Part shown: positions 8,756 to 17,037 of the stretch, one piece after another
Numbering within the stretch: position 1 is the first letter of the stretch
Layout of the letters: each line of letters starts with the position of its first letter
Source of the DNA: Promethearchaeota archaeon
GTDB taxonomy: Archaea > Asgardarchaeota > Lokiarchaeia > Sigyniarchaeales > SOKP01
Length of the DNA stretch: 23,864 nucleotides
Reading direction: 5' to 3'
NCBI GenBank assembly: GCA_048940925.1
Contig: JBHLOC010000041.1
Span: 1 to 23,864 of the forward strand
Notes under the pieces: model-generated
The model's input: the letters and a program-made list of their open reading frames with translations, nothing else
The model's database searches: none
What the model was told of the DNA's origin: nothing
Program-made: the position numbers and the translations under genes

Positions 8756-9502
8756 ATGTCAAATAATTTCAGTGAAAAGAAATTAGTTATTTCGATAATC
8801 TTTATACTAATTGTTATTTATCAAATATTTCCATATGCAGTTTCTATACAAGCGCAATCAGATTCATGGAAAGAATATTATGATCATGAAATTGAGCTGA
8901 AATATGATACTCCAACTAAATTAGCAGAAACTTCAATATCATCTGATAATTTTTTTGAAGTTTGGGGAATTCTTTCCTTTACCATTAGGGCTAACTTCTC
9001 GAGTAATAATGGTACAATATGGTTACAAAATCAAAATGAAGAAACTATTTGGAAAGAGGCTCTTAACAATCCCTTTGATAAACATATAAGTGGAAATGAA
9101 TCATCTAAACAGTATAGCTTATGGGCAAATTCTTCAACCTTAGGGACTGATACTTTATATTATAGTTTCTATTATGAAGTATTTCATGGTCCTAATATTG
9201 GTGCTATAATTATAACAATTTTCCTTCTCAGTATACCTGGTATTATCTGCGTCATTTTAATAGGAATGCGAAAATCGAAAGATTCAAGAAGGAGAAAAAA
9301 AGAGCCAAGGGCTGTTAGTACTGCTCTTAGAATCGGAGAGACACTTCAGAAGAAATATGAAGTTAAACATCCTGAAAAAGCGAAAAGGGTTTTAGAAGAC
9401 AAATCAAAAATGAAAAAGATAAAAACATGTCCTAAATGTGGTGCTATTAATGTAGATATTGACGATGACTTCTGTAGAGAATGTGGTTTCAAGTTTAGAT
9501 AG
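8756..9502 (+). CDS. membrane protein with extracellular domain and C-terminal zinc ribbon
   Basis: N-terminal hydrophobic/signal segment, N-x-S/T sequons (NFS, NGT, NES, NSS), TM GAIIITIFLLSIPGIICVILIG, basic linker, CPKCG...CRECG. Confidence 0.8.
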   Translation: MSNNFSEKKLVISIIFILIVIYQIFPYAVSIQAQSDSWKEYYDHEIELKYDTPTKLAETSISSDNFFEVWGILSFTIRANFSSNNGTIWLQNQNEETIWKEALNNPFDKHISGNESSKQYSLWANSSTLGTDTLYYSFYYEVFHGPNIGAIIITIFLLSIPGIICVILIGMRKSKDSRRRKKEPRAVSTALRIGETLQKKYEVKHPEKAKRVLEDKSKMKKIKTCPKCGAINVDIDDDFCRECGFKFR

Positions 9503-9735: not shown

Positions 9736-11454
9736 TTGCGATTACCTAGTTTTGTTTTAAAAAAGTGGTTAAAAGAAATCTTTATTAGAGATCACAATCT
9801 AGAAATGAGATTTTATTTCAAGAGACAGAACCTTACGATTAAAGAATTTTTAGATTCTATTATCATTTGGATTGATAAAAGCGTATTCTTTGATAACCAG
9901 ATTTATCCAATTGATTTTGATATAGTGGTAAATGGAACATTATATAAAAATGAAAGTTTGGCTATAATTAATAATTATCGTATTCAAGCGGGAGATATGA
10001 TTCGATTTATTGTCCCAAATAGAACAAATATATCAAGCGGGAGACATAAGATCTATCTTGGATCCCACGGGTATTCTATAAAGACAAGTTTTAAAATAGA
10101 GATACAAACTTCTAAAAAAAAATTGATCGAGCAAAAATCTATTCCAATAACTAAACAAAAATCTATTCCAATGACCGAGAAAAAGTCTATTTCAAAATTG
10201 TTAAAAATAACCTATTACTATGCGTTATTCTCAGTAATCTTTTATGAAATATTGTTAATTTTTAGTTCGCAAATAAACTATCTTTATTTTTTTATTCCAG
10301 CTTTGTTTATTGCTTTTTTCTTTAGTGTATACTATATAAATCGACAAAGAAATTTAGCAAGGTATCCACGACCAATAAGAAAGAAATGGTATTCTTCAAA
10401 GCCAGACTGGTTTTGGCTTGTTTTAGGTTATAGCTTCATTTTTTCATTACTTTTAATTATTCCTTGGGGTATTGTGGGACTACTTTTTGCAACTATAATT
10501 CCATGTATAATAGCATCTGTATTTTTTTTTAGGACACTATCTAGAAATGCGCTAGGGGATGAAATAGAAAAATCTTCAAGAAAAATTAAAAATAGAGAGA
10601 TTATAATTAAGGGATTATTGATTGGATTTGTTCTTATTCCTTTAGTCATTTTATATATTGTTTTTTTAAGTATAATGACCGCAATTATACTACTCTTGCC
10701 TGGAATTTTTTATTATTTATATAATAATCGTCAGAAGATGAAATTACAGAAAAAACATGAGTTCTTAATTCTTTTTATTATCATACTCCTTTCAATTACA
10801 CCAATCGTCCTTGAAAGGACCTTGATTAGAAATAATTATCAATATATTGAAGATTATAACGTAGAATCAGGAGTTCCAGATAATCTTATTTCTATATCTG
10901 AATCTTTTGATCCTCATCAAAAGTTAAATTGGAGTACAACAGGAAGCCTTAAGAATTTTGTTTTTCCTAATGAGAGAATAGTGTACAAAAATAAAATTCA
11001 TAATCATAAAAATCAATTTTTTATTCCGTACCTTCATAGTAAAGAGTTGTTTAGGTATAGCTTCTCAGCTAAACCTATTTCTACATCAATAATAATTAAT
11101 TATACAATAAATTATGGTTATTTTGAGTATTCTCTTAATGATTTATCTTTCAATATATCAGGAGATAATTTGGATGAAAACTATTTTGCTAGATATAGAT
11201 ACTGTTTTTGTTATTTCTATATAAATTCTTCTCTTTACAATCCTCCTAGTAATGCCTCAGAATCAGCATCATTTTCTAGTGGATTTCTTGTTACGATTGA
11301 TATGACCTATGAATACCAACCATTAATTTTATATATGGGGGGGGATAAGGAACAAAAACATGTAATAATTCTAAATGAGGAGTATGAAATTTTATTCGTA
11401 TTAATTGTAAGTTCTATGATACAATACGTTGATGTTTCTGGATGTGGATGTTAA
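9736..11454 (+). CDS. hypothetical polytopic membrane protein (soluble N-domain, about 7 TM, sequon-rich C-domain, ends in CGC)
   Basis: 572-aa ORF, TTG start after GGTGA RBS-like motif; hydrophobic segments about aa 160-360; sequons NWS, NYT, NIS, NSS, NAS in the C-terminal part. Confidence 0.75.
   Translation: MRLPSFVLKKWLKEIFIRDHNLEMRFYFKRQNLTIKEFLDSIIIWIDKSVFFDNQIYPIDFDIVVNGTLYKNESLAIINNYRIQAGDMIRFIVPNRTNISSGRHKIYLGSHGYSIKTSFKIEIQTSKKKLIEQKSIPITKQKSIPMTEKKSISKLLKITYYYALFSVIFYEILLIFSSQINYLYFFIPALFIAFFFSVYYINRQRNLARYPRPIRKKWYSSKPDWFWLVLGYSFIFSLLLIIPWGIVGLLFATIIPCIIASVFFFRTLSRNALGDEIEKSSRKIKNREIIIKGLLIGFVLIPLVILYIVFLSIMTAIILLLPGIFYYLYNNRQKMKLQKKHEFLILFIIILLSITPIVLERTLIRNNYQYIEDYNVESGVPDNLISISESFDPHQKLNWSTTGSLKNFVFPNERIVYKNKIHNHKNQFFIPYLHSKELFRYSFSAKPISTSIIINYTINYGYFEYSLNDLSFNISGDNLDENYFARYRYCFCYFYINSSLYNPPSNASESASFSSGFLVTIDMTYEYQPLILYMGGDKEQKHVIILNEEYEILFVLIVSSMIQYVDVSGCGC
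10132..10197 (+). repeat. 24-bp in-frame tandem repeat (about 2.7 copies), QKSIPITK/QKSIPMTE/KKSISK
   Basis: caaaaatctattccaataactaaa at 10132, caaaaatctattccaatgaccgag at 10156, aaaaagtctatttcaaaa at 10180. Confidence 0.85.
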
Positions 11455-11478: not shown

Positions 11479-12144
11479 TTACCCATAGAATAATCGATAT
11501 AATTCATTATATAATTCAGCTAATTTAGAAATTTTATATTGATCATTTTGTTGCAAAGCATAAGATATATATCCTGCTAAACCATGAGGATCGTTAATCC
11601 ATTGTAAAAATCCCTCAAGTTCAGCTTTAAGATAAGGATCAACTGTAGAACTTGCAGCTGCTTGATAACCTGGTACTGCTTGCCTTGAAGACGTTTCATA
11701 TGCCATTCCACGATTTGCTTCACTTGCTAATTCGACTTTTGTTTCAATAAATTCAGATTTTGAGCCTTTTTTCAACATTGCTGCAGCTCTTGCTACAGCA
11801 GGATACGCCATATGGAACCATCCTTTTGCCTTAGGTCGAATGTGGGCAACCATATATTTATCTCCATCGGGGGTTGAGGCACCAATTAAATGTCCTTTTT
11901 TTTTCCGATTGGTACCTATAAAACGTTCAGGTTCCATCTGCAGAATTGAATATCTAATTCCATTTAACACAACGAATTGGGCATTACCGCTTACCCAGCT
12001 GGCTAAAACTGCTTTTATATCATTTTTTACATCCCATTTACTTGTGGAATATAAAACTTTCCCTTTTTTATCGATAATTGCTACATCTGATGCATCAGGA
12101 TAATGTTTCTGCAATTTACTAACAACGGATTTAAAACTTGTCAT
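11479..12144 (-). CDS. Asgard (Loki-type) profilin with C-terminal linker and helical extension
   Basis: aa 1-126 follow the Loki profilin pattern: AIIDKKGKVLYSTSKWD, GIRYSILQMEPERFIGTN, GHLIGA, ending in a helix (YPAVARAAAML); about 95 extra residues follow. Confidence 0.82.
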   Translation of the reverse strand: MTSFKSVVSKLQKHYPDASDVAIIDKKGKVLYSTSKWDVKNDIKAVLASWVSGNAQFVVLNGIRYSILQMEPERFIGTNRKKKGHLIGASTPDGDKYMVAHIRPKAKGWFHMAYPAVARAAAMLKKGSKSEFIETKVELASEANRGMAYETSSRQAVPGYQAAASSTVDPYLKAELEGFLQWINDPHGLAGYISYALQQNDQYKISKLAELYNELYRLFYG

Positions 12145-12316
12145 GATCTATCTCTTTAATTATTTTTCTGTTTTTTTAAACTTATTATTTTGTAAAATAA
12201 TTCCTAATTGAATTATTTATAATTTAAAGAATTTTAAAAAGAGATTATTATGTATTAGAAAAAATAAAAGGCGACTTAAATCTCAAGCTTATTTTAATTA
12301 GTTTAACTGACTTGTT

Positions 12317-13429
12317 TTAATCATTTATTTTTAATGATATTTTTAAATCTTCTGCCATTTTTCCAAGTTTATTTGCCATAGCACTGATTTCTTCCATTGA
12401 GGCTGTTTGTTGTTCTGTTGATGCACTTATTCCTGTTATGGCACTGAATGAACTTTTAATTTTATTTACTACATTACTAATTTTTATGTTAGTATTCCGT
12501 ACAGCTAATTTTGATTCTTCGGCTAATTTTCTGACCTCATCAGCTACAACTGCAAAACCACGACCATATTCACCGGCTCTTCCTGCTTCAATACTCGCAT
12601 TAAGTGCAAGCAAATTTGTTTGATCTGAAATATTTGTAATTAAGTTCATTACATTACCTATATCACTCGTAGCTTTCATAACATCTTGAGTTTCTAAGGT
12701 CATATTTTGAGTAGATGAAGATATTTCTTCTGATGCAGCATTTACTTCACTCGCGCTAGCAGCTAACTCTGTCGCCATATTGGATACATTCAAGCTAGTT
12801 TCTGAAGCTGTTTTCACTACATTTTTTAAGGTACTACTCATTTGAATAATTCTATATTCTATGATTGCAACTAATCCCATAACTAAATAAATCGTATCCA
12901 TATAAGTCATAGCGAAGTTATTAAATTCTGTGCCAGTAGCAGTTTGAGAAGTACTTAACATAGCCCCAATTAAACTTAATATACCACCTATAAAGTTTAA
13001 GCAATAAAAGGCATGTAATAAAGATCGTTTTTTTAAATACAATCGAATAACTAAAACAAAACATAAAATTAAAAGACCAAGCATCATATAGTAAAAACCA
13101 AAAGTTATTGAACCCACAAGTCCAGCAGCACTATATTTAATAGTACTTTTTTTAGCTTGTTTCACTTTAATGAAAGTCTGGAAATATTCTTGACCTACTG
13201 CAAAAAGCAATATAAAAGTTCCTCCTGAGAATAGTATCATTGCTATAGGATTTACTTGGGTGGTAGAATCTTGGGGGAATGCATTAATTATATATCCAAT
13301 AGTGTTTACAGCGCATGAAATAAACCAAAACTTCAATTCTCTCCTTTTCATAAAAGCCACGAAAAATATTAAGGATGCAAAACTCATAATTACAGCATGA
13401 CATATATTCATCAAACTAATAACTGCCAT
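12317..13429 (-). CDS. methyl-accepting chemotaxis-like receptor, about 6-TM N-domain plus short signalling domain (paralog 1)
   Basis: Hairpin tip [40 protein letters not shown]; methylation-like ASEEISSS and [10 protein letters not shown]; six hydrophobic segments; no evident HAMP. Confidence 0.9.
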
Positions 13430-13557: not shown

Positions 13558-13667
13558 TTTTTTTATAAAATGTAAGTAAAAAAGTAAATATAGCTTAGCT
13601 ATTTAATATGTTTATAGCGTATTTTAACATTGAAATCTTTCTTTAAAAGAAAGGGTTGTTCAGGTAT

Positions 13668-15566
13668 ATGATGAGTATATATCAAGAATATAATAATCAC
13701 CTTGACGAAATATTTGCAAATTCATTTGATTATATATATCTTCACGATAAAGCAGGAAATGTTATTGATGTTAACGATGTTGTAATAAACAATCTTGGCT
13801 ATTCTAAACAAGAAATTCTTAATATGAAAGTTAGAGACTTTTTATTTGAAGATAATGTTGCTGAAATTCTTAGTGAAATTAAGAATACTATAAAAACTGG
13901 GTTAGTAAAAAAACCTAAAATATATAAAGTGAAAAAAAAGAATGGTAATTTTGTTTATATCGAAGCTAATGCAATCCCCATAAAAAAGAATGGCGAAATC
14001 TATGCTATTCTTGGAATTGGACATGATATAACCAAATATAAAGAAATGGAAGACAAATTAAAAATATCTGAAGAAAAATATAGAAATATTGTTGAAAATA
14101 CAACCGATGTTATAATAGTTACTCGATTCGATGGTAAACATCTTTATATTTCTCCTCAATATATGCAATTGCTTGGATATTCCGAACAAGAAGCAGATAA
14201 AGTAAATTTTGAGTTGATTCATCCAGATGATCGTCCAAAAATAATGAATCTCTATAGAAAATCAGTTGAAGAAAAGCAGACTCTTGTGGCGGAAATAGAA
14301 CAAAGATGGAAACATAAAGATGGTCATTATATATGGGTCGCTACCAAATCAAAAAATTATTACAATAAGGGAGGAGAGGTTATTGGTTGGATTACATCAA
14401 TTAGAGATATTACAGAACGTAAAAAAGCAGAATTGAAGTTAATAGAATCGGAAGAAAAATTCAGAACACTAGCAGAACAATCATTTATGGGGATTATAAT
14501 AATTCAAGGCGGAAAGCTTAAGTATATGAATAAAACATTGTCGGAAATTTCAGGTTATCCTGTTGAAGTGATGCTTAAATGGTCTGAAAAAGAAATTACC
14601 AAGATGATACATCCTGAAGATTTAAACCAGATGTTAAATCGCATAAGAAGTAATAAGGAAGAAAACATGGCTACGTTTTCTATTAATTCATTTAGAATAA
14701 TAAATAGAGATGGAGAAGTAAGATGGCTGGAAGATTACACCAGCAGAATCATTTATCAAGGAAAATTAGCGAACTTAGTTTCTCTTATTGACGTTACAGA
14801 TAAAAGGGAGGCAAATAGGCTAATTTTTGAGGAAAATAAGAGATTATTAGAGCTCAGTGAATTGAGGAAAGATCTCATTATTCGAGTCTCACATGAATTG
14901 AAGACTCCAATGACATCTATATATGGCGCGATTCAAATTCTAAATAAACTCTTTTTAGATGAAATCGGAGCTGAAGCTAAAAATTATATTGAAATTTGTC
15001 ATCGTGGATGTCTTAGACTAAAGGAATTAATTGATAACTTATTAGATGTTTCAAGATTAGATGCTAAAAGATTTCAATTAAATCTTCAGAGAGAAAATCT
15101 AAAGGAAATTATTATGGATTGTGCTTATGATATGAAATATTTGACCACTAATCGTAATCTTAAATTAAAATTAAATTTTTTAAAAGACATCTTTTATAAT
15201 GTAGATAAACTTCGTATCAGGCAGGTTTTGACAAATTTAATTTCAAATGCTATTAAAAACACTCCAAAGGGAGGAGATATTTCTATAAACTTAGCGGAAA
15301 CACCAGAATTAATTGAAATATGTGTTAAGGATACAGGAATAGGAATTACAAAGAAAGAACAAGAGAATTTATTTGAAAAATTCGGGAAAATAGAACGATA
15401 TGGTAAAAATCTAGATGTTGATATAGAAGGTTCCGGACTTGGATTATATATTTCAAAAGAAATAGTAGAATTGCACGGAGGGCAAATTCTTGTCGAATCT
15501 GAAGGAAGAAATAAAGGTTCTAATTTTAAAGTAAGATTTTTTAAAAAAATGACTAATAGAACTTAA
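13668..15566 (+). CDS. cytoplasmic PAS-domain sensor histidine kinase (3xPAS-HisKA-HATPase)
   Basis: Three PAS/PAC repeats (GHDIT, IHPDD..RDIT, IHPED..DVT), H-box SHELKTP, N-box NLISNAIK, DTGIGI, GSGLGL; ATG at 13668/13671 after AGGT preferred to TTG at 13656. Confidence 0.95.
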   Translation: MMSIYQEYNNHLDEIFANSFDYIYLHDKAGNVIDVNDVVINNLGYSKQEILNMKVRDFLFEDNVAEILSEIKNTIKTGLVKKPKIYKVKKKNGNFVYIEANAIPIKKNGEIYAILGIGHDITKYKEMEDKLKISEEKYRNIVENTTDVIIVTRFDGKHLYISPQYMQLLGYSEQEADKVNFELIHPDDRPKIMNLYRKSVEEKQTLVAEIEQRWKHKDGHYIWVATKSKNYYNKGGEVIGWITSIRDITERKKAELKLIESEEKFRTLAEQSFMGIIIIQGGKLKYMNKTLSEISGYPVEVMLKWSEKEITKMIHPEDLNQMLNRIRSNKEENMATFSINSFRIINRDGEVRWLEDYTSRIIYQGKLANLVSLIDVTDKREANRLIFEENKRLLELSELRKDLIIRVSHELKTPMTSIYGAIQILNKLFLDEIGAEAKNYIEICHRGCLRLKELIDNLLDVSRLDAKRFQLNLQRENLKEIIMDCAYDMKYLTTNRNLKLKLNFLKDIFYNVDKLRIRQVLTNLISNAIKNTPKGGDISINLAETPELIEICVKDTGIGITKKEQENLFEKFGKIERYGKNLDVDIEGSGLGLYISKEIVELHGGQILVESEGRNKGSNFKVRFFKKMTNRT

Positions 15567-15909: not shown

Positions 15910-17037
15910 TTACATTTTTTCGGTTTTAGTTAACGCACTTTTAAGATTGTCCGCTAGAGTTCCTAAATTATTTGCTAAAGCACTAATCTCTTCCATTGAA
16001 GCAGTTTGCTGCTCTGAAGAAGCACTTATTCCTTCAATTGCATCAAATGTCTTACTTATTTTATCTATTATAAAACTAACTTTGTTATATGATTCACCAA
16101 CAGCGTTTTGAGACTCTTCTGCTAATTTTCTGACTTCATCAGCTACAACAGAAAATCCTCTACCATATTCACCCGCCCTTCCTGCCTCAATGCTCGCATT
16201 CAGCGCAAGTAAATTGGTTTGTTCTGAAATATTTGTAATAATTTCCATAACATTATGGATATCACCAGTAGATCTCTTAATTTCCTGAGTCTCTCTTGCC
16301 ATTTCTTGAGTTGATGACGCAATTTCTTCTGCAGCTGCATTTACTTCGTTTGCACTTGCCGCCAATTCTGTTGCCATATTTGAAACATTGATGCTCATGG
16401 AAGAACTTTCATTAATTACATTCGTCAATGAATTTTGAAATCTGGTAATCCGTAATTCTAATAATGCAACAAGACCAGTTACGAACATCAAAGAAACAAA
16501 CACAGTAGTCATCCCTATCCCAAATTCATTTGTCTCAATAAGTTCTAAATCCCTTAATGTAGAAGATAGAATTGTAAGAGATGCTGCTATTAATGTAATA
16601 ATGAAAAACGCATAGGTAGGTGATCTATTTTTTATATACAATCTAAGCTGTAATATTATACTTATTAATGCTAAAATTAAGATAATAAATTCTGCTCCCA
16701 AAATAATAGGGACTACTGATAATATTACTCTAAGATTTTTACCTATTTCCTGATTCCAATTTTTTGATTTAATAAAAGTTGTATAATATTCATGAGTAAC
16801 TCCTATGAATATTATAATTACAGCTATGACAAAAAGTATATTCATAATGATACCTCCAGTTTCTCCGAGGAATTTACTAAATGAACTTAAGATTTGACCA
16901 ATCATAACTAAAAAATAGGAAGGGAACCATTTTATAAGATCGCGTCGCTTTGTGCAAACCCATCCAAAAATAATTGTGGCAAGAACAATTATAATAGTTG
17001 CTTGGTTATCTATAATTGTAAAATTTGTTTCTACCAT
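15910..17037 (-). CDS. methyl-accepting chemotaxis-like receptor, about 6-TM N-domain plus short signalling domain (paralog 2)
   Basis: [40 protein letters not shown]; [13 protein letters not shown] shared exactly with 12317..13429. Confidence 0.9.

Follow-up and report, generated by a model that had tools for sequence, protein, structure and literature searches.

Our analysis showed that a gene of a Loki-type Asgard archaeon (Promethearchaeota archaeon, assembly GCA_048940925.1, contig JBHLOC010000041.1) encodes a profilin that is tied by a disordered linker to a small, undescribed three-helix module, and that this module is portable, is predicted to pair with itself and exists as a free mini-protein in almost every genome of one order. 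The gene lies at positions 11479-12144 of the window, i.e. the whole 23,864-nucleotide stretch of DNA that was analysed, which lies on contig 29 of a 4.8-Mb, 90-contig assembly. It is on the minus strand, starts with ATG at 12144 and ends with a stop codon at 11479-11481, and encodes 221 aa; the plus-strand reading of the same interval is full of stops. A word-indexed search of 5.8 billion proteins returned 358 relatives at E<=1e-3, the best 120 of which are 201-226 aa long, cover 91-100% of the query at 62-88% identity and are named only 'hypothetical protein' in Promethearchaeota/Lokiarchaeia-type MAGs. The earlier note had proposed a profilin-like N-terminal domain, a linker and an unrecognised helical C-terminal domain, and this three-part layout is confirmed: in an alignment of 23 homologues, all sharing the same start, mean pairwise identity is 0.74 for aa 1-126, 0.34 for aa 127-167 and 0.69 for aa 168-221.

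The head (aa 1-126; 11767-12144, minus strand) is homologous to the solved Loki and Odin profilins. A phmmer search of all PDB chains found only Asgard profilins, namely Loki profilin-2 and -1, Odin profilin and a Thor profilin (5zzb, E 3.6e-9; 5yed, E 7.7e-9; 5zza, E 5.3e-8; 7pbh, E 1.9e-6), and the best-conserved stretch aligns with the G-I-K/R-Y...R-x-I-G-T-N...K-G-H block of Loki profilin-2. Profilin is also the top Pfam family (PF00235), but at only 16.3-18.1 bits against a gathering score of 25, a cut-off that the single-domain profilins of the same genome only just pass (25.8-26.4 bits), indicating that this model is weak for the lineage. Since profilin, roadblock and longin share a core fold (PMC10933270), we modelled the protein from the alignment with AF2. 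The head, at a pLDDT of about 90, has the profilin topology, with an N-terminal helix (4-14), seven strands (the first two at 18-25 and 30-33) with a short central helix (43-52), and a C-terminal helix (109-123). The top 38 rows of a Foldseek search against PDB are all profilins, led by the Loki and Odin proteins (5zzb, 5yed, 5yee and 5zza; E 1e-11, TM over target 0.78-0.88) and followed by eukaryotic profilins, whereas roadblock chains appear only from rank 39, with TM 0.56-0.65 and rmsd 4.8-5.5. The head is strongly basic, with a family mean net charge of +11.8 and a pI of about 10.

The linker (aa 127-167; 11644-11766, minus strand) is acidic and poorly conserved, with a pLDDT below 50 over residues 127-166; among relatives the spacing between head and tail varies from 26 to 142 aa, and some versions are lysine-rich. 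The tail (aa 168-221; 11482-11643, minus strand) is predicted to form three helices (170-184, 188-198 and 202-220) and reaches a mean pLDDT of 83 when modelled alone. Its signature is E-x3-F-L-x-W-[IV] ... G-L ... [YW]-I ... L-x-x-[IL]-Y ... [IL]-F, usually at the extreme C-terminus, and over 51 diverse tails W182 and G188 are invariant and L189 and Y212 are at least 90% conserved. Pfam and NCBIfam gave no family for it, even at E<=10. A tail profile against PDB sequences gave only a spurious hit to the 23-residue neck repeats of a C-type lectin, where seven 13-residue stretches each have an individual E above 200, and a weak, unrelated 45-residue match. Foldseek against PDB gave no match at E<=10, and VIA-align against 48,161 chains gave a best Z of 4.6 at rmsd 5.0, which corresponds to generic helical noise.

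The tail is not confined to profilins of this type. A profile of it, searched against 1.84 billion cluster representatives, found 53 proteins, 41 of them at E<=1e-10. With an HMM of this family's head plus Pfam, 24 of these were found to carry a profilin domain, 4 a Ras-family GTPase domain and 1 leucine-rich repeats; 1 of the Ras proteins (database protein P0159) continues after the tail into a gelsolin repeat and the start of a profilin domain before the sequence ends, and 1 protein (P0140) has the tail at the N-terminus, followed by a polyproline stretch, a profilin domain and a zinc ribbon. Tail-bearing Ras-family GTPases and relatives (P0140, P0144, P0149, P0153 and P0159) also carry proline-rich stretches and zinc ribbons. 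Several of the 53 proteins are only 53-66 aa long, but many other short hits may be gene fragments and were not counted as architectures. The GTPase, gelsolin and polyproline fusions carry tails 61-71% identical to that of a second profilin-tail paralogue of this genome, against 41-49% identical to the tail of the gene studied here, and there are therefore at least two tail subtypes.

In the genomes sampled, the tail is restricted to one order. Across 400 genomes of the phylum, the tail profile (E 5.4e-36 for this gene) matches 148 of 153 genomes of the order, with 1-4 copies each, and none of about 246 others, including 7 genomes of other orders of the same class. A profile of the free mini-tail finds a full-length match at E<=1e-14, always in a 42-87-codon open frame, in 140 of 154 genomes of the order and in 0 of the 7 genomes of other orders of the class; these absences hold at the sensitivity of short profiles built from this order. 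The genome studied here encodes this gene, the second profilin-tail paralogue on contig 31 (L002:1492-2127, minus strand; 211 aa, 38% identical), three single-domain profilins, five actin-family genes and a free 53-aa ORF homologous to the tail on contig 18 (L007:1486-1647, plus strand; BLASTP E 7e-9 to the tail). The mini-tail gene is transcribed divergently from a conserved 319-380-aa protein with several CxxCxGxG zinc-finger repeats, in this genome and in two closed sister-family genomes (36% identity, E 3e-72), and an actin-family gene lies about 7.5 kb away on the same contig. Closed genomes of the sister family each have one profilin-tail gene and one mini-tail gene, and a GC-rich family keeps the 219-aa architecture. 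In a tree of the profilin domains, this gene sits in a well-supported clade (99/95), distinct from the clade of the contig-31 paralogue and from the sister-family clade; the deeper nodes are unresolved and the single-domain outgroups sit on very long branches, so that the order of duplication could not be derived. The 159-aa zinc-finger protein directly upstream of the contig-31 paralogue is conserved next to the sister-family profilin-tail genes (44% identity, E 8e-29), suggesting that this paralogue is their positional orthologue.

The earlier note had suggested that the tail might oligomerise, localise or regulate the profilin, and of these roles oligomerisation received computational support; the note did not foresee that the tail is shared with GTPases, gelsolin and LRR proteins or that it exists on its own. 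A complex prediction with two copies of the tail, using a 51-row alignment, scored 0.62 in all three runs, against a best of three controls of 0.04. This mark was reached by 20 of 30 proteins solved as pairs of one chain and by 1 of 23 solved as single chains, although these counts hold only roughly because our own alignment was used, and up to about 19 in 100 monomers may reach it. The runs agree in at least 89% of contacts, the partner pLDDT is at least 82, and the predicted interface is symmetric, large (93-102 contacts) and involves all three helices, as in an intertwined dimer. No similar solved complex exists, so the pass is unlikely to come from the model's memory. The score is nonetheless the model's own confidence, and supports binding without showing it. 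Interface positions are more conserved than the rest of the helices (mean entropy 1.48 vs 2.41 bits, one-sided Mann-Whitney p about 1e-4), but in so small a unit the interface and the hydrophobic core coincide and this adds little.

Taken together, these observations are best explained by a tethered, probably bivalent profilin, a reading for which we consider the odds about even. The head would, by inference, bind monomeric Lokiactin on its conserved beta-sheet face, and the flexible acidic linker of about 40 residues would connect it to an autonomous docking module of about 55 residues that most likely forms a symmetric dimer with a second copy, such that two profilin heads hang from one hub. 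Since the same module occurs on the second paralogue, on the free mini-protein and, in relatives, on Ras-family GTPases, a GTPase-gelsolin chain and an LRR protein, like-with-like or mixed pairing could bring actin regulators and switches together, with the mini-protein acting as a partner or a competitor. However, no actin, gelsolin or GTPase gene is adjacent in the window, and this genome has no GTPase-tail fusion, so that the hub idea rests on other genomes. It is conceivable, though unlikely on present evidence, that the tail is a lineage-specific homotypic 'docking code', in which pairing of like tail subtypes assembles profilins, gelsolin and Ras-family GTPases, some of which carry proline-rich arms, into a switch-controlled actin-assembly hub regulated by the mini-tail protein, as a functional forerunner or analogue of GTPase-to-formin/WASP/VASP coupling.

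Among the alternatives, the least remote is that the tail does not pair with itself in the cell but docks another partner, most plausibly the mini-tail protein as an obligate heterodimer, or an unrelated protein. The mini-tail gene co-occurs with profilin-tail genes across the whole order, sister-family genomes have exactly one of each, and a homodimer prediction can stand in for the true heterodimer of close relatives; on the other hand, the mini-tail is only about 25-30% identical to this tail and the homodimer prediction passed with a wide margin; this possibility remains tentative. It is less likely that the acidic linker and tail fold back on the basic head and autoinhibit it until relieved by a signal or a competing partner. 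The charge split (head about +12, linker about -3, tail about -3), conserved over 23 homologues, would suit such a fold-back equally well, and N-terminal extensions of Heimdall and Thor profilins are reported to modulate ligand binding (PMC8410842). Yet, judging without the coordinates or PAE, the tail gains no confidence from the head in the full-length model (pLDDT 64-76, against 83 alone; pTM 0.54), and the same module is found on unrelated N-terminal domains and as a free protein.

We consider it similarly unlikely that the head has the profilin fold but regulates small GTPases, like the related roadblock and longin folds, with the tail linking it to them. This view draws on the fusions of the tail to Ras-family GTPases, on a weak Robl_LC7 hit (E 0.016-0.06; 13.6-15.4 bits against a cut-off of 23) and on the Arf/Ras/Rag-like small GTPase genes that lie next to profilin-tail orthologues in two other genomes (L041:4730-5686, minus strand; L042:3190-3699 and 1012-1956, both minus strand). 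The model, however, has the profilin-specific extra strands and a short central helix, the fusion of the tail to a gelsolin repeat and the start of a profilin domain points to actin, and sequence similarity is greatest over the strands that probably face actin in profilins. A tail acting as a filament-side or membrane-binding end piece, analogous to the villin headpiece (VHP), seems very unlikely. The layout of an actin-binding core, a floppy linker and a small C-terminal helical unit ending in a conserved aromatic residue does resemble villin, and domain X of Thor 1DGelX was hypothesised to bind filament sides (PMC7444086). But the tail is acidic (family mean -2.8; 42 of 51 tails are not positive), in contrast to the probably basic surface of the headpiece, its helices are longer, and there is no Pfam VHP hit for aa 125-221 even at E<=10, nor is VHP among the fold-search rows, although the latter does not exclude it.

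Profilins and gelsolins are the only established regulators of Asgard actin, and we found no description of this architecture or of the tail module in the literature examined, although prior description cannot be fully excluded. The single-domain Loki and Odin profilins share the homologous head (21-26% identity) but are 119-136 residues long, without the linker and the conserved module, and the head described here is unusually basic. The Heimdall and Thor profilins (PDB 6YRR, 7PBH; PMC8410842) also carry an appendage that is proposed to regulate them, but it consists of about 20-24 disordered residues at the N-terminus and is found in roughly 5% of Asgard profilins, whereas here it is a predicted folded C-terminal domain that also exists on other proteins and on its own. 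Thor 1DGelX, in which a gelsolin domain is followed by an unknown helical 'domain X' (PMC7444086), is likewise an Asgard actin regulator extended by a C-terminal helical domain of unknown function, but no sequence relation was detected; the tail profile finds nothing outside one order and only three copies in this genome, none of them on a gelsolin. A role analogous to that of small homotypic modules such as the PKA RII D/D domain or the Ena/VASP tetramerisation helix may be envisaged, but no sequence or structural similarity was found.

The gene is preceded by a 172-bp AT-rich spacer (12145-12316, minus strand), in which an oligo-T tract follows the stop of the upstream gene and an A/T-rich TATA-like stretch lies about 30 nt before the ATG; from this reading of the sequence alone, the gene probably has its own promoter. 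The upstream, co-oriented gene (12317-13429, minus strand) encodes a membrane protein with an MCP-signal domain, and further on are a triple-PAS histidine kinase (13656-15566, plus strand) and a second membrane protein with an MCP-signal domain (15910-17037, minus strand), with no che genes or response regulator in the window. The first MCP gene recurs in orthologues of 64-70% identity but is absent in more divergent members of the clade, and we read this adjacency as inherited synteny, not an operon. In two other lineages, a conserved 450-461-aa protein with no Pfam family (L025:4594-5979 and L041:2616-3971, both plus strand; 57% identity between them) ends 21-30 nt before the profilin-tail gene, while in this genome its homologue (48% identity) lies on contig 72 (L027), inside a 647-codon open frame. 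On contig 7, just downstream of an actin gene (L005:2-1105), a 416-aa ORF (L005:1432-2682, plus strand) has a profilin-like N-terminal domain (E 8e-13 to this family's head HMM) fused to a TrmB-type helix-turn-helix (Pfam TrmB, E 1.5e-9), and could be an actin-responsive transcription regulator. Finally, two opposite-strand genes of the window (8756-9502 and 9736-11454, both plus strand), one encoding a membrane protein ending in a zinc ribbon and the other a 572-aa multi-pass membrane protein with no Pfam family, sit between the profilin gene and the 4Fe-4S/tRNA-editing genes, which directly follow it in one related genome (L025; a TFIIB gene intervenes in another, L023), and look like a local insertion.
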